From IMG/VR virus record IMGVR_UViG_3300048813_000140, positions 50,702-114,701 of that record: a stretch of DNA of 64,000 nucleotides; one strand, given 5' to 3'. This document shows, one piece after another, positions 9,879 to 62,680 of the stretch. Origin of the DNA: a virus. Taxonomy: Duplodnaviria > Heunggongvirae > Uroviricota > Caudoviricetes. A program made the position numbers and the translations under genes. The notes below the pieces were generated by a model. It made no database searches. It was given only the letters and a program-made list of their open reading frames with translations, and had not been told where the DNA came from. How positions within the stretch are numbered: the first letter of the stretch is position 1; each line of letters starts with the position of its first letter.

Positions 9879-10466
9879 ATGATCCACAGAATTATTAAGC
9901 AAGCCATTGATAACTCTGGCATTATGTATATTGATGACATAAAAGAATTTGAGCGCATGCGTCCAAATATGCCAACGCCTTACTATAAAGCCATCTATAT
10001 CAACCCAGATATAGTGGAACAAGGTGTGGCAGTGGGCCATAAATTTAATGAATGGGAAAGAACAATGAAAACTGAAATGATAGTTATCAACAATGGCTTG
10101 TATCCCTATTCAGACGCCAAACTTGCCCAGTTATTCTTTCATGAATTGGCCCATGCAACGGGCAGAGAAGGACGACTTAATAGGGTAGGGCATACACAAT
10201 TCTTCAAAGGATCTCCACACATGAGAGAGGAAGAAGAATTGATTGCTGAGATAGCTAGTGGATTATTGATGGAGCATTTTGGTTTGGCTACCAAGGAAAC
10301 TAGAGTAAGTAATCAAGAATACTTAGAATTTCAACTAATGTGGATACCCACTTCATTGCTTACAGAACTAATGGCAACGACCAATAGGAGAGCGGGAGAG
10401 GCTACAGCATATATTTTAGATAACTGGATTAAGGAAATCGAATTTTTACAAGAGAAGGCGGCTTAG
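9879..10466 (+). CDS. zincin-like metallopeptidase domain protein (ArdC / MPTase-PolyVal-like)
   Basis: The motif FFHELAHATGREGRLNR matches the HExxHxTGxxxRLxR signature of ArdC-C-terminal-type zincins. RBS GGGGAGG. Confidence 0.6.
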   Translation: MIHRIIKQAIDNSGIMYIDDIKEFERMRPNMPTPYYKAIYINPDIVEQGVAVGHKFNEWERTMKTEMIVINNGLYPYSDAKLAQLFFHELAHATGREGRLNRVGHTQFFKGSPHMREEEELIAEIASGLLMEHFGLATKETRVSNQEYLEFQLMWIPTSLLTELMATTNRRAGEATAYILDNWIKEIEFLQEKAA

Positions 10467-18571: not shown

Positions 18572-18795
18572 TCAGGACGATGGTCAATAAACAAGAATAT
18601 GATGTGATGTTCGAGGATATTGGAGCACATCAAAGACTTATAGTGTTTCAGGAAGGTAAGCGTATAGGTCACAGAGATCTAGGACTACTAACCGACACAG
18701 GACGTGGAGTGATTGATTACTGTATTAAAAAGATACTAATGGATATTGAGATGGAAGAATTTTTAACAAACCCAAATGGAGAAATTGTTATATGA
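18568..18795 (+). CDS. hypothetical protein (75 aa)
   Basis: ORF track. ATGA overlap. Confidence 0.5.
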   Translation: MIRTMVNKQEYDVMFEDIGAHQRLIVFQEGKRIGHRDLGLLTDTGRGVIDYCIKKILMDIEMEEFLTNPNGEIVI

Positions 18796-19610
18796 AATAT
18801 CTAAGCGTAATTATGTTTTTGTCTTTGGCTGGCTGTGGTACGGAATTTGCCACAGTGCAATACAAACCCGCACCATCTTGTACTACGGTAGATACTAGCA
18901 CTGGAGCGACAGTTACTTGTCCAGATGGCAGTACGTCTACTATTACCAATGGCACAAATGGTCAAAATGGAGCCACAGGTCAGGCAGGGGCTACAGGAGC
19001 TACAGGAGCTACTGGAGCCACGGGTCCATCCGCACCTACACCTCCCACAACGCCAGTGAGTACAATCGTATCAAACTACGACGAATATTTGGTTAGCCAG
19101 GGTAGCGATCCTTTAAGTCCAGGATTGAGATGCACGCTTTACAATGTTCCTAACTTGCCTGCTACGCCTTGCCTGCTATCTAGCAGCATCGTAGGATGCA
19201 CGCAGCTATCGACTACGGTTGGATACGCCACGGTAGCAACTTGGACCTATAACGGGACAATTAATCAAGCAAATGAAAATGGCACTGCTGGATTCAATAT
19301 GTTACCAACAGCACTACAGCCATTATATTCTTCAAACTTTGCAATCACTTGTACTGGATATATTGTCAATGCAGACTACAATTATCACGAATTTGACACA
19401 TCTAGTGATGACGGCTCATTGCTGTATATCGGTGGAAGTCTAGTGGTCAATAATGACGGCCTCCATTCAGTAGCCAATGTTAAGGCTGAGAAGTACCTAG
19501 AGGCTCAAGTTTATTCCTTTCAGATAAACTACTTCCAAGGCCCCGGACAAGTATCCCTGATCGCAAATATGGACGGCGCTCCAATCCCTGCGGCGAACTT
19601 CTACCACTAA
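18792..19610 (+). CDS. secreted lipoprotein with a collagen-like G-X-Y repeat (272 aa)
   Basis: MKYLSVIMFLSLAGCG is a perfect lipobox (LAGC). Nine consecutive GXY triplets GTNGQNGATGQAGATGATGATGATGPS. The C-terminal beta-rich domain is Cys-containing. Confidence 0.7.
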   Translation: MKYLSVIMFLSLAGCGTEFATVQYKPAPSCTTVDTSTGATVTCPDGSTSTITNGTNGQNGATGQAGATGATGATGATGPSAPTPPTTPVSTIVSNYDEYLVSQGSDPLSPGLRCTLYNVPNLPATPCLLSSSIVGCTQLSTTVGYATVATWTYNGTINQANENGTAGFNMLPTALQPLYSSNFAITCTGYIVNADYNYHEFDTSSDDGSLLYIGGSLVVNNDGLHSVANVKAEKYLEAQVYSFQINYFQGPGQVSLIANMDGAPIPAANFYH

Positions 19611-22174: not shown

Positions 22175-22386
22175 GTAGAAAATCTGATAACTTAGAGATA
22201 TTGAACCAATTAAGTGAGTATTTGTCCAAGAATCCAGACATTAGATTTGGGCAAGCATTGAGAAACATAGGTATTGTTTATGACCATCAAAAACCAGACG
22301 GTACAGTCGAATGGGCAAATCATTTCAATGAGGAACCCGATATGATGCTTAAACGTATGGAGAAACGAAAGAAAGGACATATATGA
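22171..22386 (+). CDS. hypothetical protein (71 aa)
   Basis: ORF track. ATGA coupling. Confidence 0.5.
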
Positions 22387-23057
22387 AAATTATTTCAGAA
22401 CAAGAACTAAAAGACATACTAGATAAACATGGTAAGTGGATTAGGAATGAAGAAGGTGGGTCTCGTGCGAACCTGTCTGGTGCGAACCTGTATTGTGCGA
22501 ACCTGTCTGGTGCGAACCTGTCTGATGCGGACCTGTCTGGTGCGGACCTGTATCGTGCGGACCTGTATCGTGCGGACCTGTCTCGTGCGAACCTGTCTGG
22601 TGCGAACCTGTCTGGTGCGAACCTGTCTGATGCGAACCTGTATCGTGCGAACCTGTATCGTGCGAACCTGTCTCGTGCGAACCTGTCTGGTGCGAACCTG
22701 TATCGTGCGAACCTGTATCGTGCGAACCTGTCTCGTGCGAACCTGTATTGTGCGAACCTGTCTGGTGCGAACCTGTCTGATGCGGACCTGTCTGGTGCGA
22801 ACCTGTATCGTGCGAACCTGAAGGAAACGGCATTAGCTGATAAAATTATAGTTAATTTCCAGCTTGGCCAACATACTGCCTCGTATATGGGATCGGACGA
22901 GATTGTCATTGGTTGTCATAAACATCCGATAAGTCATTGGATTGAGAACTACGAAAAAATAGGAAAAGACAATAATTACACCGAAGAACAAATCAAGCGA
23001 TATGGACAGTTTATAAAAAGTTGTCATAGGGACTTTAACAAAAACAAAGGAGAATAA
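22383..23057 (+). CDS. pentapeptide-repeat protein (about 28 tandem A(N/D)L(S/Y)xx repeats) with a C-terminal globular domain of about 85 aa; 224 aa
   Basis: [25 protein letters not shown]... is encoded by 15-bp tandem DNA repeats gcgaacctgtctggt (22456-22822). The same repeat family as Qnr / MfpA-type DNA mimics. Confidence 0.8.
22456..22822 (+). repeat. 15-bp tandem DNA repeat array (about 24 units), coding for the pentapeptide-repeat domain
   Basis: tgcgaacctgtctgg / tgcggacctgtatcg variants in register. This explains the artefactual ORFs on both strands at 22349-22909. Confidence 0.85.
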
Positions 23058-31376: not shown

Positions 31377-31616
31377 GTGAGTAGATTTGATTATGTGAAG
31401 TATGATGATGAGGCAATTCAGCTACAAGCTGCGTTTAAGGGAAACCTACAGTCCGTTGAGGGCTTTATTGAGGCTTCACTTATGTCGCCAAGAGCTAAGG
31501 CTCTTGCGTTGACCAAGCTTGAAGAAGCTTATATGTGGATAGGTAAAGCTATTCGCGACGATCAGATTGCTAGGAACGAAAAAACTGAATTACAAGAAGA
31601 AAGAGGACAATTATGA
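31377..31616 (+). CDS. hypothetical protein (79 aa, GTG start)
   Basis: RBS TAGGAGAAGTTGTG. Confidence 0.45.
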   Translation: MSRFDYVKYDDEAIQLQAAFKGNLQSVEGFIEASLMSPRAKALALTKLEEAYMWIGKAIRDDQIARNEKTELQEERGQL

Positions 31617-32416
31617 AAATGTTGCTATTGGCCCTTATGGGCATTACGATGATTGGCTGTTCTGTTATCCAACCTGGAGAGTCAGGGGTGGTCTTTAATC
31701 GCATTACTGGCGGATTACATACGGAATCGCAAGGAACCATCTTCGTCATTCCTGGAGTCACTACAGTCGAACCATACCCTATCTCCCTGCGGACTTACAC
31801 AATGGTACAACGTGAAGGTGAAGGATCTTCCAAGACAGATGACAGTATCGATCTCCCAAGTAAGGAAGGTCAGCACATTCGTCAAGATATTTCAATTACT
31901 TACAATACTTCCCCAGATAAAGCTGCCGATGTATATAAGTCGTTCAATGGCCAGGACATTGCTGATATCGAGAATAGTTTTATCCGCCGAACCACTATCA
32001 CGGTGGCCCAGACTGCTGCTGGAACCATGTCGTTGACAGAGTTGATCTCGACACGTCGCGATGAATTGCAGCAAGCTATTCAGGTTAAGCTAGCAGAAGA
32101 ATTAGCTAAACGTGGATTTATCCTTGACAAGGTAAACCTTGGTGCAGCACATTTGCCCCCTTCAGTTGAACAACAGATGCAAGCAAAGATGGCAGCTCAG
32201 CAAGACGCTCAACGAGCTGAATACGAATTGATCAAACAAGGCACACTAGCTAAAGCACGAGTAGCTGAAGCTGAAGGTATTGCCAAGGCCAACCAAATCA
32301 TGCAACAATCGTTGACACCCGCTGTATTGGAAAAGATGAAGCTTGAAAAATGGGATGGTGCCCTTCCTACCTATCAAGGTACTGGCGGCGGCATCATGTT
32401 GAATCTGAATAAGTAG
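31613..32416 (+). CDS. SPFH/band-7 (stomatin/prohibitin/HflKC-like) domain lipoprotein (267 aa)
   Basis: Lipoprotein signal MKMLLLALMGITMIGCS. An SPFH core (…ISITYNTSPDKAADVYKSF…LTELISTRRDELQQAIQVKLAEELAKRGFILDKVNLGAAHLPP) is followed by an Ala/Gln-rich coiled coil (QAKMAAQQDAQRAEYELIKQGTLAKARVAEAEGIAKANQIM). Confidence 0.8.
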   Translation: MKMLLLALMGITMIGCSVIQPGESGVVFNRITGGLHTESQGTIFVIPGVTTVEPYPISLRTYTMVQREGEGSSKTDDSIDLPSKEGQHIRQDISITYNTSPDKAADVYKSFNGQDIADIENSFIRRTTITVAQTAAGTMSLTELISTRRDELQQAIQVKLAEELAKRGFILDKVNLGAAHLPPSVEQQMQAKMAAQQDAQRAEYELIKQGTLAKARVAEAEGIAKANQIMQQSLTPAVLEKMKLEKWDGALPTYQGTGGGIMLNLNK

Positions 32417-43014: not shown

Positions 43015-45165
43015 TTACGCTGATTGCTGAACAGCTGAAATGCTGATACTGATTGGTATGAAGTAAATAGCGGTTGCTAATTTAATTTCAACTGCTACGG
43101 TCATAGTAGGAGCAGAAATTGTAATTTTTCCATTTTTCCATCCTGCAGGCGCATCACTCGAAGCGGCGATAAGTTTTAAATTCTTATAACCACTCATTTT
43201 TTGAGCCAAGAAGCTTAAACCGTCAGCAGCATTTACGTCGGCCAAAGATTTACCAACGAAAGCGGACTGGAAGCTAGCAGCCAAATCCAAAGAAAGGATG
43301 TCTGAGTCATAAACAGCTTGAATGCTGTTATAGACGAAGTTACTGTCAAATCCATAAGTTGTTTGATCGCTTACCCACAAATTTCCACCAGGGATTTGGG
43401 TCAGGATCAAAAGACCTGCATTTAGTGCATCTTCAACATCGCCAGGATCGCCAGAGCTAAATCCAGAAGGATCGGTGAAAGTAGTTACATTGGCAAGTTT
43501 GTTACAGATTGACTGATAAAATCCACCAGCTTGCATACCGGCAGCAACCACTGCGGTGTACCAGGGCATAAAGCTAGTAATGACACCAAGAGAGTTTTCT
43601 TGGGTTGATTGTTGGATAGCCAAAGAGCATCTGTAATTCGACAAGCCTTGAGAAGCCGATTTTGCGTTCGCATAAGTTCCCCAGAAAGACATGACACCAA
43701 TTCGATTACGTTTGAGTTTAGGAGTACTGTAAGCGATACAATGATTTTTAAGACCCGTATTCACAGCTGCGATAGTATAAGTAGAGCTAGGATCGGTAAG
43801 TCCCAAAGCAATATCGGCAGTAGCATCTTCAGAGAAGAGAGGAACTATGATATTTGTTTGGATAGCGCCCAAAGAGTCGATTACGTTCAAAACGTCCACA
43901 GCAGCTGTACCGCCTTGTGATCCGCCAGCTAAGAAAGCTGGAGCAGACATAGGAGCGGGAAGTCCTGAGGTAGCACTTGGCGTAAACGAAACAGCCGCAG
44001 TGCTCAAGTTTTGGTTAAATTGATATAGAGCATCTTTAATTCTGCCAGGCATCAAACTAGCAGCGGTAGAGGCGATCCCAATTGCCGTGACAGCATCCAA
44101 CGAACTAGTTGGCAAGTTGTTAGCGGAAGGAGCAGAAACAGCGGTATATCCAGTTTGAGAATCAATAAAAGCGGCCAAAGTAGCAATAGTCGTGTATTGA
44201 CTGATTGGTATCGACAGAGCTGCGCCAGATCCGCCAGTTACGACAGTAGTGAGCATCCCAGTAGCTTGATTGATAGTAAGAGTGGCAGTAGTACCCTGAT
44301 AACCTACGCTTAATACGATTACGGGAGTAACATCCAGTGTTTGGTTTACGTTATTTTGAGTGTTACTCAAAGAGAATTCAATTTCAGGTTCTTGCGAAGA
44401 TACGGTAATTCCAGCGACCAAAGCTAAGGAAGCCAAATCACCAGGAGTAGAATCGACCAATTCGAAAGATTTGCCCCAACCTTTTGCGTAAGCCAAGGCG
44501 TCTGGAGACATAGTTAAGGTGAAACTTGCAGTAGGATTGCTTAAGCTAGCTGTGGCTACGATACCAGCAGGAAGAACTGTGTTGAGTTCGACGACTAAGG
44601 TAGCGATGCTGTTGTGTAATGCAGGGGTAGCACTCAAGGTTACGACGGTAGCGGCAAGGCCGTTCAGTCGTATTGTAAAACTTGCAGAATTCAAAGGAGC
44701 GCCAAATGCAGGAACTACTCCGCTTGTTACCGTAGGAGCTACTTCAGCAGCTAGCGACGTGATTTGAGTCATGTAGCTATTACCTTGAACTCCATAGTTT
44801 CTATCTTGCAACAGACCATAACTAGCCAAGGTAAACGAAGCTTGAGGGCTTGTATTGGTTTTGGAGATGTAGATGAAATTGGCCGTAGCTTGAATCGCAG
44901 GATCATTAGAAGGATCAGAAAGAGCGCTAAAAGCATCAACGATAGGTCCGCTGATATACAGCTGTTTTACTTTATCCAATTGACTTGGAGTAAATACGTT
45001 GTTAGCTAATACGGTTTGCGTATAGCTAGGTCCGCCAGTGGCTTCACCAAATATGGTGATAATGCCGGAAGAACCCAACCCAATAGGTTGACTTTGTACC
45101 GTCACGTCAGGATAAGCACCAGGGATATTCGTTTGTACGAAATCGGTTACTAATTGTTGTGCCAT
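43015..45165 (-). CDS. contractile tail sheath protein candidate (716 aa)
   Basis: The N-terminus 'NIPGAYPDVTVQSQPIGLGSSGIITIFGEATGGP' follows the sheath N-terminal pattern (xPGxYxxExxxSxxxxxxGxxxxAxxGxAxxGP, cf. T4 gp18). Its size, and the tube-sized gene that follows, support the call. Confidence 0.65.
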   Translation of the reverse strand: MAQQLVTDFVQTNIPGAYPDVTVQSQPIGLGSSGIITIFGEATGGPSYTQTVLANNVFTPSQLDKVKQLYISGPIVDAFSALSDPSNDPAIQATANFIYISKTNTSPQASFTLASYGLLQDRNYGVQGNSYMTQITSLAAEVAPTVTSGVVPAFGAPLNSASFTIRLNGLAATVVTLSATPALHNSIATLVVELNTVLPAGIVATASLSNPTASFTLTMSPDALAYAKGWGKSFELVDSTPGDLASLALVAGITVSSQEPEIEFSLSNTQNNVNQTLDVTPVIVLSVGYQGTTATLTINQATGMLTTVVTGGSGAALSIPISQYTTIATLAAFIDSQTGYTAVSAPSANNLPTSSLDAVTAIGIASTAASLMPGRIKDALYQFNQNLSTAAVSFTPSATSGLPAPMSAPAFLAGGSQGGTAAVDVLNVIDSLGAIQTNIIVPLFSEDATADIALGLTDPSSTYTIAAVNTGLKNHCIAYSTPKLKRNRIGVMSFWGTYANAKSASQGLSNYRCSLAIQQSTQENSLGVITSFMPWYTAVVAAGMQAGGFYQSICNKLANVTTFTDPSGFSSGDPGDVEDALNAGLLILTQIPGGNLWVSDQTTYGFDSNFVYNSIQAVYDSDILSLDLAASFQSAFVGKSLADVNAADGLSFLAQKMSGYKNLKLIAASSDAPAGWKNGKITISAPTMTVAVEIKLATAIYFIPISISISAVQQSA

Positions 45166-46451: not shown

Positions 46452-47492
46452 TTAAGATTCCTCAGATTCAGTTACTGGGAACCAATTTTGATTCTCTTGT
46501 TGTTGCAGTGTGTCAGGCTCTGTATTGCTTATTATCTTGATTCCACCCGTATAGTCATCACAGTTGACCCTATCGGTTAATTCAGCTATTTCTATGACTC
46601 TATGAGGAGCTTTAATGAAAGTCTGCTCCACTTGACCAGTTATTGTGATAATTTTGACGTAAGCCTCTTCTCCGCCAGGACCTTCATAGTTGGGGTCTTC
46701 CATGATCTCTCCACTGTTTATGACAGATTCAGAGAATCCATTAGCCTCTAAAAGACTTTCTTTATATCTTAGAATCGTGTATAGGGCTATAGTATGTAAC
46801 CAAATCAGGGCTTGAGGGTCTCCATGTGCGTGTATGCCAACCGTATAAGACTCTGAAGCAAAAATATGTTCAATTCTAGCTACATAGTACTGATATTTCG
46901 GAACTATCGCTAGTCTAGAAGCATCCAACCGAATGTTGGGTTCAATATAGAGGCCTTCTCCATTGATATTCTGTATTATGAAGCCTTCCCCTTTATCTGG
47001 GTCGACAAGGATCTGACCTGGAGTAACATTTTGAAATCCGACTACATCGTCTCCAAAGGTTATCAATCCGGTAGAAGGATCATACCCAGTAGGAACAAAG
47101 GGCTTCACTATATAGGCTATAGGTCTTCCTATTTCTTGCGGAAGAAGTATGATGGTTTCAGCAGACAAATCGGCCATGTGCTTCATTTCAGGCTTTTCGT
47201 TTGAATTATTCTGAAATATCGTTATGCATGGCAATATATCTTTGTCCTTACGGGGACGCATGTATATCTCTACGTTGTTATTAAGAAACCATTCTTGCAT
47301 TGCATTGATATTGCTTTTGCCACTTTTGTCGGCTAAAAATTTTACGTTAGTAAGTCCCTGATTCATATGCTGTAGAATCCACGGATTTTTACGAACTTCT
47401 TCAAGTCCTTGCACTAATAGGTTTCTAAGAATAAAATCGCCTTGAAAAATTCCGATGACACACCTACCTATTGCTTTTCTTAATGTTGTCAA
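46452..47492 (-). CDS. virion structural protein (346 aa)
   Basis: ORF track. The C-terminus overlaps the HNH gene start by 29 nt. Confidence 0.6.
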   Translation of the reverse strand: MTTLRKAIGRCVIGIFQGDFILRNLLVQGLEEVRKNPWILQHMNQGLTNVKFLADKSGKSNINAMQEWFLNNNVEIYMRPRKDKDILPCITIFQNNSNEKPEMKHMADLSAETIILLPQEIGRPIAYIVKPFVPTGYDPSTGLITFGDDVVGFQNVTPGQILVDPDKGEGFIIQNINGEGLYIEPNIRLDASRLAIVPKYQYYVARIEHIFASESYTVGIHAHGDPQALIWLHTIALYTILRYKESLLEANGFSESVINSGEIMEDPNYEGPGGEEAYVKIITITGQVEQTFIKAPHRVIEIAELTDRVNCDDYTGGIKIISNTEPDTLQQQENQNWFPVTESEES

Positions 47493-48021
47493 CCGCCCAC
47501 AATGGCTGAAGATTAGTATAATGACATGCTACTAAAATTTGTTCTTTTTGTGTAAGGTCAAAACTGGACAGAGGCACAATGTGGTCAATATGCCATTTTC
47601 CGTGATTTGACCATTCCATTCCTTCGACAAATTTTGATTCCAGATAAGTTTTTAAAAAAGAAATGTTACACCCTAAATCACTTACAGCGGACCCACCCTT
47701 ATATGAATTTTTGAGTGCTTTCCTCAATCTATCTCTTAACAATCTACGTAATTTGAATTCTGTATCTTCTTGTTTTTTTCTTTTCTCGTATTCTGCTGAC
47801 TTTTTATTAAGAGCTAGTCTGTTTTTTTTGCGATATTCTTTCAAATACTCAGCACTTTTTTCTTTTCTACTATCTCTATACATTTTGAGATGATCTGTTT
47901 TATTTTCCACATATTCACGAATACATGACTTACATTTATACCCAATTCCATCTTTTCTGGATGAATCTCTATGAAAAAAAGACAAATCTTTGTATAATTT
48001 ACAAATTGTGCATTTTTTCAT
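47464..48021 (-). CDS. HNH homing endonuclease (free-standing), paralog of 33448-34098
   Basis: CTICK...CKSC zinc motif. HNH signature 'GKWHIDHIVPLSSFDLTQKEQILVACHYTNLQPLWAVDNIKKSNR'. Inserted between structural genes. Confidence 0.8.
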   Translation of the reverse strand: MKKCTICKLYKDLSFFHRDSSRKDGIGYKCKSCIREYVENKTDHLKMYRDSRKEKSAEYLKEYRKKNRLALNKKSAEYEKRKKQEDTEFKLRRLLRDRLRKALKNSYKGGSAVSDLGCNISFLKTYLESKFVEGMEWSNHGKWHIDHIVPLSSFDLTQKEQILVACHYTNLQPLWAVDNIKKSNR

Positions 48022-48791
48022 TATTTACCCCAATCCTCTTGGATTTTAGGCCAAATCTTGTCATCCCATATTTTTTGAGCTTCGTCCATAGCTTTATCCA
48101 TGTATTTTTTAGCGTCACTTCCGGGGTGCATCCATTTTCCTTCACTTCCAGGCCCACTAGATACGGTTCTGAAAGTTAGGATATCACGTCTAACATTGCC
48201 ACTCTTTGTTAGGGTTTGATATACGCTGACACCCTTCATTACTGGAGTATTACCTTTGCCAGGTATTTTTCCTCCAAAATCGAATGAATGAAGCTTCCCG
48301 ACTTTTGGACTTCCGTTAGCGTTATATTCTATTTTTTTGAAAGGTATATTCTTTTTCTTCAATTCTTTTCTTATGTCGTTGACCACATTTTGAGTATATG
48401 GAGTATTATCTTGAGGAGCCTTGTCGTAATGAAATGGAATAACTTTGTACGTGTATTTATTGCCTCTTTTACCTTTCTTCAAAAGGTCAGGCTTCATATC
48501 GTGAGGCTTGAGTCCTTCTTCTATGAATAAGGCAGGTTCAGCCAAAGATATGACGTAGACCCCATCGCCGGTCTGTTCTGGATTCGACAGATTAGAGAGA
48601 TATATGTTTCTAGTAGAGCCGAGCCCCTTTGCGTTAGGGCCTTCTCCTTCATTGACCAAATCAATTATTCTGGCTTTTACAGTTTCTGCTAAAGCCCCAA
48701 CAGCCTTCTTGATGTCAGCCTCAATTTGGTCTCTAAGTTCTCCAAATTGTGAGGCCAAGGCTTCGGCGTCTACGTGAAATTTAAGCGCCAT
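48021..48791 (-). CDS. virion structural protein (256 aa)
   Basis: ORF track. ATGA-coupled to the HNH gene. Confidence 0.6.
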   Translation of the reverse strand: MALKFHVDAEALASQFGELRDQIEADIKKAVGALAETVKARIIDLVNEGEGPNAKGLGSTRNIYLSNLSNPEQTGDGVYVISLAEPALFIEEGLKPHDMKPDLLKKGKRGNKYTYKVIPFHYDKAPQDNTPYTQNVVNDIRKELKKKNIPFKKIEYNANGSPKVGKLHSFDFGGKIPGKGNTPVMKGVSVYQTLTKSGNVRRDILTFRTVSSGPGSEGKWMHPGSDAKKYMDKAMDEAQKIWDDKIWPKIQEDWGK

Positions 48792-49010
48792 CTTTATTCT
48801 CGTTTACGGGTTTTACTGGAACTCCAGTAGGACTCTTTACTTTAGCTTCTTTCATGTCAATCCATCGAGTCTTTTTAGTTACGGGATCGATTACTTTTTT
48901 TTGACCCTTGTCGTTTACTGCATTTTCCATATATGGAGTTCTAGCGACATGCTCTGTCGTCCATTTGGTTGGCAGCTTTCCGACCGGTTGGCCAATAGAA
49001 CCTTCTTGTC

Positions 49011-50579
49011 CTACTGGCCCAGCGTTTTTGGGCCATTTGAGCCCGCCCCTGTTGGTTGGGGTTGAGAAGGCTGAGCTGGAGTCGGTGGAGCCGACCCAAG
49101 CGGACTACTATCTAGCTGTTGTTCTTGGTCTAAACCAAGCAACTTGGCCATTTCGATCATGGCCTTAAGCATAGCAATAGAAGACGCATACAGCTGTGGA
49201 GCTTGTTCTCTTGCCTTTTCAATTATATTTTTACAGGCCTTAAATCCCTCAAGAGCTTGGCCTACCATTTCTAGTACGCGTTCTCTTTGAATGCTATCGG
49301 CGTGATTATCTAAACCCTCTTGCAAAACAGAAGTAATGTCTGGAACGTGCTGATCGCCTAATCCCAAATCTGAAGGAGTATTTTGGCTATATCCTTCTGG
49401 TCGACTGACATTGCCTTCCATATTGGTACCATCAGGCATATTAGCTGCATCATCTTGATTGACCTGAGTTCTTTGAGCTTGTTCGTTTGGAGGAATGTTG
49501 TCGATTTCTCCAAGAATACTTTCTACGGTACCTGTATTTTCTGGATTTACGGTCTGGCCAGGAGCAATTACGTTGCTTCCGTTTTCGCCTCCAGCTACCC
49601 CTGTACCCATATTAACTTCGGCAAGTTTTCTATTTTCATTCGTAGCAACGTCGGTATTTATTCCTAGTCCTGAAGGAGTAGACGATATTGCGGGAGGCTT
49701 ATCCATACTAGGACGAGCCTGATCCTGACCTAGATAGTTTTCACCATCTTGAGTAGTGGGCAATACTTGCGTCGAAGGAGGATTTGGCGATATAGATTGA
49801 TCGTCTCCCGCCATTCCCCCGCCATTTTGGCGGGATTGCTGACAATACGGACAATCCTGAGAATGACCGTCTTCAGCTGGATTATGTTCTGCCATTTCCA
49901 TACAATATGGACAATCTTGAGCATGTCCATCTTCTGCTGGATTATGGTTGAGTCTAGCGCAATACGGACAATCGGATGGATGACCATCTTCTGTAGGATT
50001 ATGAGCCGCACAGTAAGGACATTCGTGATCTAGATTCTTCTCCGAAATGGTTTGGCAATAAGGACAGTCATGTTCTTGAGGTTTATTTATTTTCATATTG
50101 TTTTCCATATCAACTTCTTCCGATTTGAAATAAGCGTTGCCCTGCTTCTGTTCCTCGGCGTTTGCCGTTCCCTGTACCAAACTTAGTTTAAGTTTATCTA
50201 GCTCTTGTTCTACGATAGCGTCGTATACCACTATCATATTTTTTCCACGAGCCTTACCTATCAGGAGTGCTTTACCTGCTTCTGATAAAGTTCTGCCTAC
50301 TCCAACCGTAACAGTCATTCCGGTAGCAAATTCGTAATCTCTACGCATTTCTTCAATATTTGACTTGGCCTGTTCTTTTACTGCGTATAGTCCTTGATCC
50401 CCACCTGAAGAATAGATAATGCCACCGTATTGTGCGGCCCATCTATTCCAGAGTTCATTACCTAACTCTATCTTCTCAGAAACGGTCTTAAGCTCAATAG
50501 GATTGTCAGAAAGAATAGCTTGACCTACTCGATTGCCGATTCCATCGCCGTCAAAGGCCACATAGATCAAATTATCCAT
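49011..50579 (-). CDS. multidomain protein (522 aa): an N-terminal GGDEF/mCpol-like palm domain, five CPYC repeats, and a P/S/Q/G-rich low-complexity C-terminus
   Basis: The N-terminus 'VAFDGDGIGNRVG' ... (about 45 aa) ... 'YSSGGDQGLYAV' mirrors the D-x-D plus GGD(E/D) motif pair of nucleotide-cyclase / minimal-polymerase palm domains. Repeats 'NPAEDGH(A/S)QDCPYC'. Confidence 0.7.
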   Translation of the reverse strand: MDNLIYVAFDGDGIGNRVGQAILSDNPIELKTVSEKIELGNELWNRWAAQYGGIIYSSGGDQGLYAVKEQAKSNIEEMRRDYEFATGMTVTVGVGRTLSEAGKALLIGKARGKNMIVVYDAIVEQELDKLKLSLVQGTANAEEQKQGNAYFKSEEVDMENNMKINKPQEHDCPYCQTISEKNLDHECPYCAAHNPTEDGHPSDCPYCARLNHNPAEDGHAQDCPYCMEMAEHNPAEDGHSQDCPYCQQSRQNGGGMAGDDQSISPNPPSTQVLPTTQDGENYLGQDQARPSMDKPPAISSTPSGLGINTDVATNENRKLAEVNMGTGVAGGENGSNVIAPGQTVNPENTGTVESILGEIDNIPPNEQAQRTQVNQDDAANMPDGTNMEGNVSRPEGYSQNTPSDLGLGDQHVPDITSVLQEGLDNHADSIQRERVLEMVGQALEGFKACKNIIEKAREQAPQLYASSIAMLKAMIEMAKLLGLDQEQQLDSSPLGSAPPTPAQPSQPQPTGAGSNGPKTLGQ

Positions 50580-51504
50580 GTTTCCCTCTTTTTAGGACTT
50601 CTAGGAACATTTCAATATTATCTTTTTCCCAAGACTTACCGAAACGTACTTTAATTCCATCTTCTGTCTTTTTGATATATACCTTACTGTCTTGATCATC
50701 ACCGAAACAAACGCACGTAGAAAACACTTTGCCATCAAAAATGTCATGATTACAATCTGGACAAGTAACAGACTCACTTTTGGCCAAAAAGACAACATTT
50801 TCATTCTTCTTGAATTTGTTTCTCTTTTTTTCTAAGAAATCCTTTACAGGGGATATCTTTTTTACCTTGTGCTCAATTTTCGTCACTTTACCATCTTCTA
50901 TGGTCGTGGTTTTGGTTTTCTCTTTTTCGTATCTAGGAGCTTCTTTTGCTTTGTTAGCTTCTGTAATTTTTGCAAGTATCAATTGTTGTACTGCGTCACG
51001 CTCTGAGATTTTTTTGTCGACTACTTTTCCTATAAGATCATGAAGAGCCATACGCTCATCTATCATATGTTGAACTTTATCTAAAACGTCCGTAGTCAAT
51101 TGCGATTTGGGTTGTTTACCTAAATCATCTGCAGAATACAATTCAAAAGTTGACATAACACATAGACCAACTCCAGGAATTGGCCTAAATTTGAATTCTG
51201 CAATTTTCTTATTTTCCTGTTCTATATCGCCACTAAAAACGTCTGGGCCATGTTTGTCAACCCTTAGTTTGCAATTTCCATCCAAAGGTAGTGCTATATC
51301 TTTATGCTCTCCAACATTCATTGGAGTTAATTCTCTAATCAAAAAAGACATTATGGTTCTAGGAACGATCTTTAGACCTAAATGTATGTCTTCAAGATCG
51401 GTTACAGATTTGGTGTCCTTTTTCCATAATTCAAACTTGTTTAAAGATTCCATGAAATCTTCACCCAAGGTTTTATTTAAAAAGAAGTTAGCATTAGAAG
51501 ACAC
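50572..51504 (-). CDS. hypothetical protein (310 aa) with a zinc-ribbon-like 'CPDCNHD...CVCFGDD' motif
   Basis: ORF track. Confidence 0.6.
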   Translation of the reverse strand: MSSNANFFLNKTLGEDFMESLNKFELWKKDTKSVTDLEDIHLGLKIVPRTIMSFLIRELTPMNVGEHKDIALPLDGNCKLRVDKHGPDVFSGDIEQENKKIAEFKFRPIPGVGLCVMSTFELYSADDLGKQPKSQLTTDVLDKVQHMIDERMALHDLIGKVVDKKISERDAVQQLILAKITEANKAKEAPRYEKEKTKTTTIEDGKVTKIEHKVKKISPVKDFLEKKRNKFKKNENVVFLAKSESVTCPDCNHDIFDGKVFSTCVCFGDDQDSKVYIKKTEDGIKVRFGKSWEKDNIEMFLEVLKRGKHG

Positions 51505-55983: not shown

Positions 55984-56002
55984 ATGAGACAGTGAGGTGA
56001 AA

Positions 56003-56410
56003 ATGAGTAATGAAGCGGCAGAGACGATAAAAGAGGCGGTAAAAGAGGGTGCCCTTAGATTTGATAAGGATAAGCCCAAATTTGAACTAATTTCTCCAAT
56101 CGCAATGGAAGGATTAGCTGGAATATTGACGTTTGGTGCCAAAAAATATGCAGCACACAATTGGCGCAAGGGAATGGCCTGGAGTAGAGCATTGGGATCT
56201 CTTAAAAGACATCTTATCGAGTTCGAAAAAGGTAATGACTATGATTATGATGAAAACTGTGAAGGATGCAAGGAAAAACATTGCCTGGACCATACAGGCC
56301 TATTACACATCGATCAGGTACTTTGCAATGCTATGTTTTTGTCTGAATATGCCAGAACACATCCAGAGCTTGATGATAGATATAAAGTGAAGATTGAAGA
56401 CAAAAAATGA
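56003..56410 (+). CDS. nucleotide pyrophosphohydrolase-like protein (dATP/dGTP diphosphohydrolase N-terminal-domain-like), 135 aa
   Basis: 'RFDKDKPKFELISPIAMEGLAGILTFGAKKYAAHNWRKG...GSLKRHL...GLLHIDQVLCNAMFL' matches the signature of a phage dNTP pyrophosphohydrolase domain recalled from memory. The track start at 55997 is a GTG. Confidence 0.6.
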   Translation: MSNEAAETIKEAVKEGALRFDKDKPKFELISPIAMEGLAGILTFGAKKYAAHNWRKGMAWSRALGSLKRHLIEFEKGNDYDYDENCEGCKEKHCLDHTGLLHIDQVLCNAMFLSEYARTHPELDDRYKVKIEDKK

Positions 56411-57063
56411 AAATTGTAGCTATTTCTGATGCCCATGGAAAATGGGGAAAGCTTAAAATTCCTGAATGCGACCTTTTAATCAGTGCTGGCGACTACAGTT
56501 TCCGTGGGGAACGCCATATGGTTAAGGACTTTCATAAGTGGCTAAACGACCAAGATGCTGGGTATATTATAAGTGTACAGGGCAACCACGAAGTTCAAGT
56601 CCAGCACAATTTCCAAGAAATGAAAGAATTGGCAGAAAGTGTCTGCCCAGGACTACACTTTATTGAAGAGGGTCTAATAGACATTGAGGGAGTCAAGATT
56701 TGGTGCTCTGCTTGGCAGCCATGGTTCCATGATTGGGCATACAATGCCCACAGAGGAGCAGATATAAAGCGTCACTGGGATCTAATCCCTGACGATACAG
56801 ATGTACTGGTTACCCATGGACCTCCATATGGAATTCTAGATGAACTCGTAAAAATAGATGGCACGCCAAAGGGTCAGTTTGTTGGATGTCAAGATTTAAT
56901 GGATGCTGTTAAGAGAACCAAGCCCGATATCCACATTTTCGGCCATATCCACTGCGGATACGGCGAAAAGCATGTAGATGGGACGAGTTTTTATAATGCG
57001 GCAGTTTGTGACGAGATGTATTGTGCTACAAACTCGCCACATGTGATCGACTATATTAAGTAG
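56407..57063 (+). CDS. calcineurin-like metallophosphoesterase (218 aa)
   Basis: MPP motifs DAHG, GDYSFRG, GNHE, VTHGPP and GHIH occur in canonical order. Confidence 0.85.
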   Translation: MKIVAISDAHGKWGKLKIPECDLLISAGDYSFRGERHMVKDFHKWLNDQDAGYIISVQGNHEVQVQHNFQEMKELAESVCPGLHFIEEGLIDIEGVKIWCSAWQPWFHDWAYNAHRGADIKRHWDLIPDDTDVLVTHGPPYGILDELVKIDGTPKGQFVGCQDLMDAVKRTKPDIHIFGHIHCGYGEKHVDGTSFYNAAVCDEMYCATNSPHVIDYIK

Positions 57064-59035
57064 GGGTAATCGTGCTGTGATCCAGCGTGACAGCTGTCTG
57101 AGCATATAGGCTTCCATGAACCGTAGCAGTTGTTTGGACTGCAATATTCGTTTGGCCTAAGATGATACCTTCAAATACAGAGCTGACTCCGAGAGTGACC
57201 GCTCCTGCTACAACCCAGAAAATATTCGTTGCAACTACGCCACCGCTAAGGATGATACTTGTAGATGCACTGATATTTAATGTTCCTGCTATCTGGAAGA
57301 TAAATACATCACTAGGTCCACCAGAAACCGTACAATTGGTAGGAATCGTTACGCCGGTAGTCCATTTATATAGACCTGGAGTAAGAGTGAGTCCGCCTAG
57401 ATTGCCTGATGCGAGGTTGGTGAAATTAGGGCTGGTTCTGCCTTGTCCATTCGTATATGCAGTTCCCATGTCTCCAATAGCCGTAGTTAATGTGGCAGGA
57501 GTTGGAGCGCTGTAATCGGCAGCATAAATGTCGCCGGTAACGTTAGGTGCTGTAGAGAATTGTCCAGAGCCGTCTAGAGTCAGAACGAATCCAGTAATAG
57601 CTGTGTGGGCAATAGGACTTACGGCCATTTTACCAGTGATCGCGCTTCCGCTAGTATCGCTGATTCCACTTTCTGATAGGATCGTGTAGTTTGCAGCGGT
57701 AGCTAGGTTAATAGGAGCTAAACCGTTTGAAATGTTGAAGGAAGTACTGTAACCTACCAATACGCCAGCGCCTGATGTTGCAGATTTGGTAGCACTAATG
57801 ATTTTAGCTCCATTAAGGCTGATTTGCAAATTTGCAGCAGAGAAATTGGCTACACCAGCAACCGCATTCATAGATACTGTTCCGAGTAGGGTGCCAGTAC
57901 CAGAAGAAATTGCTAAAGTAACCAAAGCGGTAGAATCGGGACCAGTAGTAACAGTAGCGTTCGATGAGTTTTGGATCGCTACAATAGGCATTGTGGCAAA
58001 ATTTACATTTTGTGCAGCACCTACGGGTTCTGTAGTAAATACCATTTGAGTAGCAAGACTAGGAGATGCACTGATTGTGTAAGTAGCAGATGCTACTGCA
58101 GAATTAGAGAATCCAGGATTAACAGCTATAGCTTTGATGGTTTGCGTTGCCCCGACCGTAATTGGACCAACATATGGAGTGCTGCTAGTTGTAGGTGTAG
58201 ATCCGTTTGTGGTATAATAAATGGATGCAGTGGCCGTAGGAGACGAAATTGTGATTATTTGAGCAGCGCTATAAGTGGCCGAAGGTAATGAAAATGCAGG
58301 AGTCCCAGCTTGAGCGATTACAGCATTGATGATCACAGTAACCACGTTTGAAGCTACGCTAGAAGTCATACCAGCTACAGCTGCAGCAATGGCGGCCTGA
58401 GTAGCAGTGGCGATAGCTGCGGAGGTCTCACCGGATGTAATAGTTACTTCAATGCCAGTAAATCCGGCAGGAGTTGGATTTGTGTTTGATCCGCCAGTTA
58501 CATTGTACCAAACCGTGTATGAATTTGCATTTCCAGCGTTAAACAACTGAAAGGATGCACCAGGACCGGTAGAAGCAAAAGTGCTTCCGGCAGGCAGATT
58601 CAATTGAACTTGCTGTATGGCTGTCTGACCAACGGTTGACGTAAAAAACGTAAAAGCAGAAGGCATCGAAATATTTGCCGGAGCATTTGTAGGAATAATC
58701 GGATTTGGTTGAATTGGCATGATCGAGGTAATGAATGGAAGTGCGCTAGCCAAAATACCACCAGCCACATTTGCAGCTACATTCGCGGCAATGCCGGAAT
58801 TTGTGAATCCATCAACCATGAACCTTAAATCGGTCAAATTGAGAGCTTTAGTGCCCAAAATTGCGGCCTGAATGTCAGCGGCGACTTCTTCATTACTCAT
58901 TGCTGTAATAAGTCTTCGGTAAGTATAGTTTGAAAGAACGGAACCATTTACAATTGCAGCAGACAGTTCAAGTCCAGCGCGGACGCTCGTGAGATCGTCT
59001 ATAAGATCGTTGATAGTTTGATTGGATAAAGCCAT
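57056..59035 (-). CDS. virion-associated protein (659 aa) with a chitobiase/beta-hexosaminidase-C-like domain and a C-terminal ice-binding-like DUF3494 domain
   Basis: 'TPYVGPITVGATQTIKAIAVNPGFSNSAVASATYTI' is a CHB_HEX_C-type motif. The C-terminus 'ATAANYTILSESGISDTSGSAITG...LGGLTLTPGLYKWTTGVTI...SDVFIFQIAGTLNISASTSIILSGGVVATNIFWVVAGAVTLGVSSVFEGIILGQTNIAVQTTATVHGSLYAQTAVTLDHSTI' follows the DUF3494 consensus closely. Confidence 0.8.
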   Translation of the reverse strand: MALSNQTINDLIDDLTSVRAGLELSAAIVNGSVLSNYTYRRLITAMSNEEVAADIQAAILGTKALNLTDLRFMVDGFTNSGIAANVAANVAGGILASALPFITSIMPIQPNPIIPTNAPANISMPSAFTFFTSTVGQTAIQQVQLNLPAGSTFASTGPGASFQLFNAGNANSYTVWYNVTGGSNTNPTPAGFTGIEVTITSGETSAAIATATQAAIAAAVAGMTSSVASNVVTVIINAVIAQAGTPAFSLPSATYSAAQIITISSPTATASIYYTTNGSTPTTSSTPYVGPITVGATQTIKAIAVNPGFSNSAVASATYTISASPSLATQMVFTTEPVGAAQNVNFATMPIVAIQNSSNATVTTGPDSTALVTLAISSGTGTLLGTVSMNAVAGVANFSAANLQISLNGAKIISATKSATSGAGVLVGYSTSFNISNGLAPINLATAANYTILSESGISDTSGSAITGKMAVSPIAHTAITGFVLTLDGSGQFSTAPNVTGDIYAADYSAPTPATLTTAIGDMGTAYTNGQGRTSPNFTNLASGNLGGLTLTPGLYKWTTGVTIPTNCTVSGGPSDVFIFQIAGTLNISASTSIILSGGVVATNIFWVVAGAVTLGVSSVFEGIILGQTNIAVQTTATVHGSLYAQTAVTLDHSTITPT

Positions 59036-59297: not shown

Positions 59298-60701
59298 TTA
59301 GTATCCAGCACCAGGAATCAATTGGCCTGTGATGTTTTCCAAGAGCACGTTTTTGCGTGGTTGGTAAGCAGCCAAGGACAAGAATCTGAAATGCGCTTCA
59401 GGCAAAGACAAATCTTGAACAGCAAGTTTTAGTTTGCTGTAAGGAGCCAATTGAGCAAAGCCCATTGTGTTTCCTTGGATCAAGAAGCCAGTAACCGAGC
59501 CAGGTTGACGATTGCCCAAATCGATGAAGATCGGGTTTCCGTTACCTTGAGCAATTCTACCGATGAATTTTGCAGAACTTGCAGATCCACCAACAGCAGA
59601 GCGATAAACGTTGTAATATTGAGCGCTAGCAGCAGAAGTGATCGTTACATTAACTTGATCACCAGCAACCAATACAGCTACAGAAGCTGCAGGAGAAGGA
59701 TACGACTCACCGCGCATACTGACTGAAGTAACATAGTACCAGTAAGTACCAGCAGACAACAGCGAACCAGCTGCTCCTGCGTCGGCCAAAGTGGGAACTG
59801 CGGGAGCAGCAGGAGAACCTGATCTTGCTCGTGCAGGCCTGGTTTTGCCAGACAAGAAACGTGAACCTTCTAAACTAACGATTGCAGAAGATGTCCACTG
59901 TGTTCGCAAATGAGCGCCAGTAGCTTCTTGAGCAGACCCAGCCAACATAATACGTTCTTTGGCATGAGCAATTTTGTTATAAGCAGACAAGCTGATAGGA
60001 TCAAGGATCAAACGATCAGCAGCGCCCATGTTCATTGCTGAACGAACAGACGAGTCTTCGATAATGGACTGAGTAAGAGTTCCACCGACCGACAGAACCA
60101 CAGTTTGGTCAGAACCAAATTCTGCGAACATCAAGTCTTGTGTGTTGGATTGAGCATCCGACTGTCTAACTTGTTGGTCAACACCAATCATGTTAGGGAC
60201 TTTAGCTACGGCAAGGGGGTTACCGTTAAAAACACCCATATTTGAGAAATCAGCTTGACCACGGAAAGAATCGAATTCGATGTCTCCGGCAAGTTTCATG
60301 GCAGCATCAGCAGAGGCTCTGTCTTCGGCTTTTGTACCGTCGAAAGCACCGATCATATTTGATGCAACTGTCACCCGACGAGTTGTGCTGTAATATGCCA
60401 TGGGCACTACTGCACGAACGTAGTTTGACGTGTCTTCTTCGCCTACGCCACCTTCGAACTGGGCAGACCCACCGAAGATACCATAGTCAAGTTGACGGTT
60501 AAATTGATGCAATTGTGACTTCACATCTTTCGAGGGCAACACCTTTTGAAGTTTGATGTGGCTATCGTCAAAAGTGACGTTTTGCATAACAGGTGACATG
60601 TCCTCAATCATGAGGGCAGCGCCTTGTACGAGCCTGTCTGGCGATGCAAGGTAACTACCTGCTTCCAGGGCTTTCATTAGGCCTTGAAGTTGTTCGATCA
60701 T
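59298..60701 (-). CDS. major capsid protein candidate (467 aa)
   Basis: A large protein immediately downstream of an acidic scaffold-like gene, upstream of the rest of the structural module. No family-level motif could be verified by eye. Confidence 0.55.
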   Translation of the reverse strand: MIEQLQGLMKALEAGSYLASPDRLVQGAALMIEDMSPVMQNVTFDDSHIKLQKVLPSKDVKSQLHQFNRQLDYGIFGGSAQFEGGVGEEDTSNYVRAVVPMAYYSTTRRVTVASNMIGAFDGTKAEDRASADAAMKLAGDIEFDSFRGQADFSNMGVFNGNPLAVAKVPNMIGVDQQVRQSDAQSNTQDLMFAEFGSDQTVVLSVGGTLTQSIIEDSSVRSAMNMGAADRLILDPISLSAYNKIAHAKERIMLAGSAQEATGAHLRTQWTSSAIVSLEGSRFLSGKTRPARARSGSPAAPAVPTLADAGAAGSLLSAGTYWYYVTSVSMRGESYPSPAASVAVLVAGDQVNVTITSAASAQYYNVYRSAVGGSASSAKFIGRIAQGNGNPIFIDLGNRQPGSVTGFLIQGNTMGFAQLAPYSKLKLAVQDLSLPEAHFRFLSLAAYQPRKNVLLENITGQLIPGAGY

Positions 60702-61945: not shown

Positions 61946-62680
61946 TTAAACAGACTTAGTTGGCCAGTAGAGAGGTTGAATATCGACAAGGGGAGCAGCA
62001 GCATTAACAGTTGCGCCGGTAACAGCAGTGCCGTTAGCCAATTCAATTAGTTGCCATTCACAGCCACATGTTTGAGCTTCAAATTCGATAGTAGCCAAAT
62101 CCGAGTGAGCAGGGATTGGATTCGTAGCACCTGTAAAGAGGTTGTCCGAGAAAGCAGAGAAAGTGATGGTTGCATCGCCAGTACCGCTGATTTTGTTCAG
62201 CGTACCAGATACGGATGGATTTCCGCCTCTACCAGCTGTTACTAAAGTAGTGCCGCTCACTAGTGTTGAGCCAACCAAAAATTGTTGACCAGTAACACTA
62301 TCTTGGTATATCGCGCCTGCCGTAGCATTTGCAGAAGTTACCGTAAATGTATAAGCACCAGCTGCGCCAGTCAACTCGTAACCGAGCATCAAGACTGTAG
62401 GAGCATATGCGTATGTCGAATTTCCAAAAATATCTTTACTTACAGCGTCAACGTTTGAAAGTTGAATATAGACAACAGGCTGACCTTCAGCTGCATTGCC
62501 ATTATGTGTCAACATGAGGTAAGGCCATTGAGCTACGTTATTGCCACCAGAAGCTTCAACGATAGTTTGTGTATAAAACCCTTGGCTAATGGTATTGAGG
62601 CCAGCATTTGCTGCCAGTCTAACGGTCAATCGGTCAGCTAAATCTCTAATAAGCGCTTCGGCTTTAGCATTACTGTACAT
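61946..62680 (-). CDS. virion structural protein (244 aa), first gene of the minus-strand late operon
   Basis: ORF track. A divergent promoter region lies upstream (62681-62854). Confidence 0.6.
   Translation of the reverse strand: MYSNAKAEALIRDLADRLTVRLAANAGLNTISQGFYTQTIVEASGGNNVAQWPYLMLTHNGNAAEGQPVVYIQLSNVDAVSKDIFGNSTYAYAPTVLMLGYELTGAAGAYTFTVTSANATAGAIYQDSVTGQQFLVGSTLVSGTTLVTAGRGGNPSVSGTLNKISGTGDATITFSAFSDNLFTGATNPIPAHSDLATIEFEAQTCGCEWQLIELANGTAVTGATVNAAAPLVDIQPLYWPTKSV

Follow-up and report, generated by a model that had tools for sequence, protein, structure and literature searches.

An mCpol palm domain on a predicted frameshifted protein in the structural operon of a Myxococcus phage Mx1-like myovirus

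In the literature searched, the minimal CRISPR polymerase (mCpol) domain is described as relatively rare and has been characterised only as the signal synthase of Panoptes, a host defence system in which it makes 2′,3′-c-di-AMP or cA3 and so holds a membrane effector inactive (PMC12657218, PMC12657230, PMC13577387). The Panoptes synthase, OptS, is a stand-alone protein of about 120–130 amino acids (aa), encoded in a two-gene host operon with a 2TM-beta or CARF-TM effector. In this study, an mCpol gene was analysed in a 64,000-nucleotide (nt) stretch of viral DNA, hereafter the window (positions 50,702 to 114,701 of IMG/VR record IMGVR_UViG_3300048813_000140). The gene is an open reading frame (ORF) on the minus strand at positions 49011–50579; its 522-aa product is identical to JGI protein P0001, encoded on a 175,837-bp contig. 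Unlike OptS, the palm found here is the N-terminus of a phage protein of 522 aa, or 599 aa in a predicted frameshifted form, in a capsid-to-tail operon, and the helical extension, CPYC array, acidic linker and C-terminal module that follow it are absent from OptS. The only literature trace of this viral family is a single line, given without comment, in Supplementary Table 3 of PMC12657218, 'WNM70340.1 mCpol+? ... Myxococcus phage Mx1', which is the sole viral entry of that table. The window protein belongs to a large uncultured viral family with an intact-looking mCpol built into a protein of the virion-morphogenesis operon.

An earlier note, made from the letters of the window, had described the N-terminus as a GGDEF/mCpol-like palm from two motifs, VAFDGDGIGNRVG at aa 7–19 and YSSGGDQGLYAV at aa 56–67. 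Profile searches placed the region in mCpol specifically and in no unrelated fold. The Pfam mCpol model PF18182 matched aa 6–119 over its full length (profile positions 1–114 of 114) with 52.3 bits (cutoff 26.4) and E = 8.8e-14, and a family profile built from 77 homologues matched the Panoptes OptS/mCpol chains 9mnr, 9pd0 and 9nwn of PDB over the whole domain (E = 8e-15). The AlphaFold2 model of the palm had predicted local distance difference test (pLDDT) values of 91–98 for aa 1–150, and Foldseek aligned it to the same three chains with E values of 1e-9 to 7e-8, template-modelling (TM) scores of 0.86–0.89 and root mean square deviations of 1.7–2.0 Å. Together with the invariant columns described below, these matches define a palm domain of aa 1–120 (50220–50579, minus strand, as are all parts of the coding region given hereafter). 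GGDEF domains and Cas10 ranked well behind OptS in Foldseek. For GGDEF domains the similarity was at fold level alone (E about 2e-5, TM 0.55–0.59), the motif here being GGDQGL, and the Pfam GGDEF model PF00990 did not match the 522-aa protein even at E ≤ 10. The Cas10 palm2 model PF22335 scored 13.8 bits, below its cutoff of 27, and neither an HD or D4 domain nor a second palm was found. Given the Pfam, PDB-profile and Foldseek matches, the N-terminal motifs are not a chance resemblance, and by profile and model comparison the N-terminus is a true mCpol palm. OptS (PF18182; 9mnr, 9pd0, 9nwn) has the same fold and about the same size as the window palm, with 28–30% identity, and its D-x-D strand, beta-hairpin Asp and G-x-G...K..GK motifs match those of the window.

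The active-site residues of the palm are D10, D12, the hairpin G59-G60-D61-Q62, K109 and K113. Ten positions (D10, D12, G59, G60, D61, G93, G95, K109, G112 and K113) were invariant in the 77-sequence alignment, among them the three Asp residues, D10, D12 and D61, of the motifs noticed earlier. When 194 palm-bearing relatives were sorted by their active-site positions, D12, D61, K109 and K113 were retained in 193, the exception being phage Mx1, and D10 was replaced by Asn in one subclade. The hairpin was GGDE in 127 of these relatives, GGDQ, as in the window, in 37, and N-x-D or SGDE in 29. The Gln at the fourth hairpin position had been proposed as a possible sign of a non-catalytic domain; this was not borne out, since the window protein keeps all of the other invariant residues and shares GGDQ with the rest of these 37 proteins, 35 of which carry the full ten-position pattern. 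The hairpin of KpOptS, which is biochemically active, is AADG, with Gly at the position of Q62, and its reported active-site residues are Asp6 and Asp57 (PMC12657218), which align to D10 and D61 in the profile alignment. As the active KpOptS has AADG, the fourth hairpin position need not be acidic; GGDQ, kept in a 37-protein subclade, is therefore not a sign of inactivation, and the alignments indicate that it is a conserved subclade state and not decay. The palm is intact-looking, with an active site under purifying selection, and would be expected to be catalytic. In L001, a close relative of the window, the hairpin is GGDE.

The palm is followed by a helical extension (aa 121–164; 50088–50219), delimited by the conservation map and the model, which lies against the palm and holds a conserved G-x-A-S-x-E-E-x-K-x-G-x-A-Y-L motif at about aa 137–152. 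Its helices, at aa 121–136, 141–150 and 152–164, were modelled with pLDDT 91–97. An array of five H-x(0-3)-C-P-Y-C knuckles, presumed to be metal-binding, occupies aa 170–248 (49836–50072). The five CPYC motifs, at C172, C187, C204, C223 and C243, agree with the number of repeats given in the earlier note; three of them lie in well-conserved NP(A/T)EDGHxxDCPYC units and two in degenerate ones. At least 90% of relatives keep the pairs C172/175, C204/207 and C243/246, each of the five CxxC motifs has a His nearby, and pLDDT in the array was 58–78. Compared with zinc-finger families, the array gave a weak match to zf-CHCC (18.8 bits, cutoff 27) and E > 0.1 for DnaJ and RING. By these sequence features the H..CPYC array is probably metal-binding. 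CPYC is also the active-site motif of glutaredoxins; a redox enzyme is unlikely here, the CPYC region of the model having short helices only and no predicted thioredoxin fold. At the DNA level, the three best-conserved units are encoded by three direct repeats (49842–50003) with a 45-nt core and a spacing of 60 and 57 nt, in place of the 51-bp repeats at about 49830–50065 that had been reported. The cores are 78–87% identical, and Tandem Repeats Finder called nothing in this region because the repeats are too divergent and too few.

The remainder of the protein consists of two parts of different character, and the disordered tail of about 250 aa described previously was found to be overdrawn. 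About 136 aa (aa 249–384; 49428–49835) form a variable, acidic, G/N/P/Q/T/S-rich linker with low alignment occupancy and conservation, pLDDT mostly below 60 and a net charge of -12; the whole protein is strongly acidic, with a net charge of -39. The rest includes a conserved C-terminal module (aa 385–483; 49131–49427), which is the constant core of the family and was modelled with pLDDT 76–92. It comprises an NVSRP..Y..N.P.DMGL motif and then a three-helix domain (..QAPQLY.SSIAMLKAMIEMAK.LGL). With a mean column identity of 57%, compared with 23% for the whole protein, it is the best-conserved part of the protein. No match to the module was found in Pfam, PHROGs or PDB (by profile for PDB; per-member PHROG scans were inconsistent).

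The coding unit does not end at 49011, as had been supposed, and reaches 48781 through a predicted -1 frameshift. A canonical slippery heptamer, C_CCA_AAA (Pro517-Lys518; 49026–49032), is located four codons before the frame-0 stop, and a predicted stimulatory hairpin (48981–49024; -26.0 kcal/mol, z = -2.9 versus shuffles) starts 1–2 nt after it. The -1 frame is open across the stop of the 522-aa ORF and encodes an extension of 81 aa plus stop (48781–49026), recognised by its homology to relatives that carry it as an in-frame fusion. With 81 aa added to 518, the long isoform is predicted to have 599 aa, and its junction peptide to read ...SNGPK and then NAGPVGQEGSIGQPVGK; the extension has a computed net charge of +5 and the motif IGQPVGKLPT...GQKKVIDP.TKKTRWIDMKEAKV.SPTGVPVKP. 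A 49-aa ORF at 48781–48930 (minus), rather than being a gene of its own, is the 3′ part of this extension. At least 37 longer family members have, fused in frame, a homologue of this ORF as their last 40 or so residues, and the likeness to fused relatives starts upstream of the ATG of the ORF (SIGQPVGKLPTKWTTEHVARTP in the window, TIGQPIGKLPTSATTEHVARTP in L007).

The heptamer C_CCA_AAR with the same -1-frame tail was also present in L001, L002/L003, L006 and L009, which come from different samples and whose proteins are 30–56% identical to that of the window. In L005 and L007 the extension is fused in frame, and in L010 it is a separate ORF. A terminus of the form P-K-x(2-9)-stop was found in 87 relatives, with exactly four residues after PK in 46 of the 87. 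Hairpins no more than 7 nt from the heptamer were predicted, by folding energies only, in four of five loci (window, L002 with z = -2.8, L006 and L009), that of L001 being weak. A sequencing (homopolymer) error was rejected as the cause of the split tail, since five independent contigs share both the heptamer and the arrangement of frames. From this comparison, C_CCA_AAA and the downstream hairpin are predicted to direct a conserved -1 programmed frameshift, giving two isoforms of 522 and 599 aa. In phages, programmed frameshifts occur mostly in genes for structure and assembly, such as those of the tail chaperone G/GT and of T7 gene 10A/10B. The site described here resembles lambda G/GT and T7 10A/10B in its X_XXY_YYZ heptamer near the 3′ end with a predicted downstream hairpin, in its predicted short and C-terminally extended isoforms and in its conservation across relatives. 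It differs from them in belonging to another gene family, in that the frameshifted protein carries an enzyme and in that some relatives have the extension fused or separate. The family offers a new conserved site of predicted -1 frameshifting.

Homologue searches gave 201 matches at 90% clustering, many on contigs of 150–177 kb, and all of those listed carry PF18182. The C-terminal domain was sought by an exhaustive HMMER profile search, in place of a word-indexed search with this domain alone that had returned 6 candidates only, and was found on 235 representatives at 50% clustering. Two candidates were discarded: P0206, a NACHT-LRR protein, had matched the C-domain profile falsely, through low complexity, and P0210 (L011), an apparent 185-aa palm-less form, was an artefact of a scaffold N-gap, the real gene having a palm. 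About 85% of complete family members keep the palm. Palm-less orthologues, verified in the DNA, were found in L007 (481 aa), in L009 (448 aa), where the N-terminus is unrelated, and in L010 (289 aa); in all three, the slot and the upstream gene, which the orthologue adjoins or overlaps, are the same. In their C-domains, palm-less forms are closest to palm-bearing proteins of several subclades (60–82% identity), and because they are scattered in this way among palm-bearing relatives, repeated loss of the palm is indicated. Sequence comparison across the family accordingly marks the palm as accessory and the C-terminal module as the constant core, present where the palm is dead or absent. In the L009 protein (P0183; 1656–3002) the palm is replaced by an unrelated Cys/His-rich N-terminus (MKKLCK.H..K.C.LHK...) without a Pfam match, and the subclade of this type (P0174, P0184, P0187, P0190, P0194, P0197 and P0198) keeps the CxxC repeats and the C-terminal module. 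P0163 (838 aa) has a weak, sub-threshold methyltransferase-like segment at about aa 280–350, between the palm and the C-terminal module, which may be a second cargo domain.

The only cultured relative of this large uncultured clade is Myxococcus phage Mx1. Searches of GenBank phages by tblastn with the window protein and the homologue P0102 gave no match at E ≤ 1e-5, and none at E ≤ 1 for P0102; the Mx1 orthologue, WNM70340.1, was found through synteny alone. WNM70340.1 resembles the window protein in its syntenic position with the same flanking genes, in its palm fold (a sub-threshold mCpol match) and in its C-terminal helix. It differs in lacking the CPYC array and in its catalytic residues, which are replaced at four positions (D10S, D61A, K109Q and K113G), so the Mx1 palm is, judged by its residues, catalytically dead. 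Mx1 (L004, OR576727.2) also has a separate GGDEF 'nucleotide cyclase', WNM70324.1 (PF00990, E = 1.3e-9), at L004 3174–3905 (17173–17904 of the record), between the prohead protease and capsid genes. It may functionally replace the degenerate mCpol; no counterpart was found in the window ORF at 61946–62680.

The mCpol gene lies between the major capsid and tail-sheath genes of an Mx1-like myovirus of about 176 kb. The major capsid protein gene (59298–60701; phrog_752) encodes a product 53% identical to the Mx1 capsid protein, and a 716-aa protein (43015–45165) is 43% identical to the Mx1 tail sheath, which bears out the late-module location given in the earlier note. The order of genes from capsid to tail tube is co-linear in the window, L001, L002, L010 and Mx1, with the slot of the mCpol gene constant; at the DNA level no similar phage was found in GenBank for the window. 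Directly upstream is a conserved gene of 310 aa (50572–51504, minus) with a C-terminal CPDC...CxC motif and 243 homologues at 50–60% identity. Its stop overlaps the ATG of the mCpol gene by 8 nt (ATGGATAA), and this start/stop overlap suggests that the two genes are translationally coupled. The setting is unlike that of Panoptes, the gene lying in the capsid-to-sheath region of a myovirus and not in a cellular genome or defence island, where Panoptes often has CBASS next to it. None of the eight genes on either side of the mCpol gene has a transmembrane-like segment typical of a Panoptes effector, and the neighbouring genes gave no effector match in Pfam or PADLOC, the latter recognising the palm only.

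The fixed slot in the structural operon, the suggested translational coupling, the constant C-terminal module, the swappable and losable enzyme and the frameshift that would set the isoforms together argue for a modular virion-associated protein of Mx1-like myoviruses, minor structural or morphogenetic, that carries a cyclase as cargo. We hold this interpretation with moderate confidence. Under it, the constant part would be the C-terminal helical domain, with the basic 81-aa extension added to a fraction of the molecules by the -1 frameshift, and this module would anchor the protein in the assembling head or neck, with the two isoforms in a fixed ratio. The mCpol palm would pair with another palm, as in OptS, and condense nucleoside triphosphates (NTPs), probably ATP, into a cyclic di- or trinucleotide, while the H..CPYC array would bind metal and may help oligomerisation. 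The enzyme would do its work in the host cell, whether it arrives with the DNA or acts late in infection, and its likely purpose would be interference with the cyclic-nucleotide immune signalling of the host. If it is active, these phages make cyclic nucleotides of the same class as the immune signals of their hosts, and the question would arise whether viral synthesis of the guarded signal is a means of countering "guard" systems. With its natural series of palm states (predicted active, dead and absent) on a constant scaffold, the family would help to tell structural from enzymatic roles.

Capsid-packaged effectors offer the nearest parallel to such a protein. T4 Alt, P1 Dar, MuF-toxin fusions and the 'polyvalent proteins' likewise join an enzyme domain to a virion-module protein among structural genes, and in them, as in the family described here, the enzymatic part is variable or swappable and the other part constant. 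For polyvalent proteins it has been proposed (PMC5512222) that they are packaged in the capsid, that some have a GGDEF domain as cargo and that they interfere with the nucleotide signalling of the host. Unlike those effectors, the window protein has its constant module at the C-terminus, matching no known family, and no MuF, portal or MPTase domain was matched by Pfam or PHROGs in the 522-aa protein or its C-terminal module.

Several results weigh against a virion-associated cyclase. In Pfam, PHROGs and PDB the C-terminal module matches no known packaging, portal-binding or scaffold family, and the 310-aa upstream gene is uninformative (AlphaFold model with pLDDT 68; best Foldseek hit in PDB at E = 0.08). 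A Pfam scan of about 50 larger ORFs, covering the whole structural operon and most of the rest of the window, revealed no nucleotide receptor, sponge or effector. The position equivalent to N34 of KpOptS, which contacts the base, varies in the family, so that the nucleotide product is not predictable from sequence. The repeated loss of the palm shows that the enzyme is non-essential. A scan of GTDB genomes gave only four contigs from metagenome-assembled genomes, with the labels Deltaproteobacteria and Flavobacteriaceae; they probably represent phage binned wrongly, so that no host could be assigned. In the searchable literature, no virion proteomics of Mx1 or its relatives was found.

A soluble cyclase, expressed late and working outside the virion, for which the place in the structural operon would serve timing only, is possible, if doubtful. 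The C-terminal helical domain would then serve oligomerisation or regulation, with the enzyme active in the infected cell late in the cycle, in anti-defence, superinfection exclusion or lysis timing. Such an enzyme would be consistent with the conserved active site, with the failure to find a known virion-anchoring domain in Pfam, PHROGs or PDB and with the other non-structural genes that the operon holds (an HNH endonuclease, a MazZ-like domain and a phosphoesterase). It does not account for the fixed slot and overlapping start codon across more than 200 lineages, nor for a C-terminal module that is better conserved than the enzyme and persists where the palm is dead or lost; there would be no reason to keep the regulatory tail of an absent enzyme. 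The conserved -1 frameshift, which would set an isoform ratio, is also typical of assembly proteins.

A further proposal concerns the target, namely that the mCpol, delivered by the phage or made late in infection, is a source of the inhibitory cyclic nucleotide that means 'all-is-well' in Panoptes-type guard systems, and so mimics the antitoxin-synthesising enzyme; we consider it unlikely. OptE or CARF-TM effectors would in this way stay inactive during shutdown of the host by the phage or its use of nucleotide sponges. If true, it would be the first counter-counter-defence by synthesis of a signal rather than its depletion, and on a virion protein dosed by frameshifting.

Quite unlikely, in our view, is a purely structural protein in which the palm of the GGDQ subclade is a pseudo-enzyme, a folded spacer or a ligand-binding domain. 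Gln as the fourth hairpin residue, the dead palm tolerated in Mx1 and the existence of palm-less forms would agree with it. Against this stand the full active-site pattern in 35 of the 37 GGDQ proteins and the active KpOptS (PMC12657218), with its AADG hairpin and with Asp6 and Asp57 aligned to D10 and D61; truly dead palms resemble that of Mx1, with several replacements. A nucleic-acid polymerase or end-processing enzyme acting on phage DNA ends (priming, tailing or end protection) in the capsid or at injection is very improbable, for although the palm fold is common to Thg1 and polymerases, weak Foldseek matches to viral polymerases exist (E > 5e-3), the Cys knuckles adjoin the palm and the gene is near head and neck genes, cyclases are by far the best matches (OptS with TM 0.88, then GGDEF), the domain is minimal (about 120 aa, without fingers or thumb), the net charge of -39 argues against DNA binding, and some lineages do without the palm and some without the Cys array.

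Other features of the window were recorded in the course of the analysis. Identity between the window and L001 was 91% for the capsid protein, 48–64% for neck-region proteins, 56% for the mCpol protein and 65% for the sheath; this unevenness indicates that the head-to-tail region is mosaic or fast-evolving relative to the capsid gene. An HNH/endonuclease VII-like gene (47464–48021, minus; phrog_1035, E = 2.5e-18) is located between conserved 256-aa and 346-aa genes and overlaps both. An HNH gene 29% identical to it was present at the same junction in L002 and none in L001, L010 or Mx1, and the window gene is probably a mobile homing endonuclease.

Within the late operon, two genes lie on the opposite strand (55997–57063, plus), with a MazZ-type dATP/dGTP diphosphohydrolase N-terminal domain (PF18909, E = 1.6e-26) and a calcineurin-like phosphoesterase domain (PF00149), respectively. 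The same two domains were found in the capsid-to-tail region of L001, with an ice-binding gene between them. No PurZ-like gene was seen among the scanned window ORFs; the pair hints at editing of the deoxynucleoside triphosphate pool or at a modified-base pathway. Directly after the capsid gene, a 659-aa protein (57056–59035, minus) with chitobiase C-terminal/Fn3-associated domains and a full ice-binding-like domain (PF11999, E = 9e-65) is conserved in L001 with 58% identity and may be a head fibre or adhesin. Four notable proteins are encoded on the plus strand of the early/middle region (9879–10466, 22383–23057, 31613–32416 and 18792–19610). They have, respectively, an MPTase-PolyVal zincin domain, which is a signature of 'polyvalent' delivered proteins, pentapeptide repeats (PF00805, E = 6e-44), an SPFH/Band-7 domain (E = 3e-29) and a PA14 domain.

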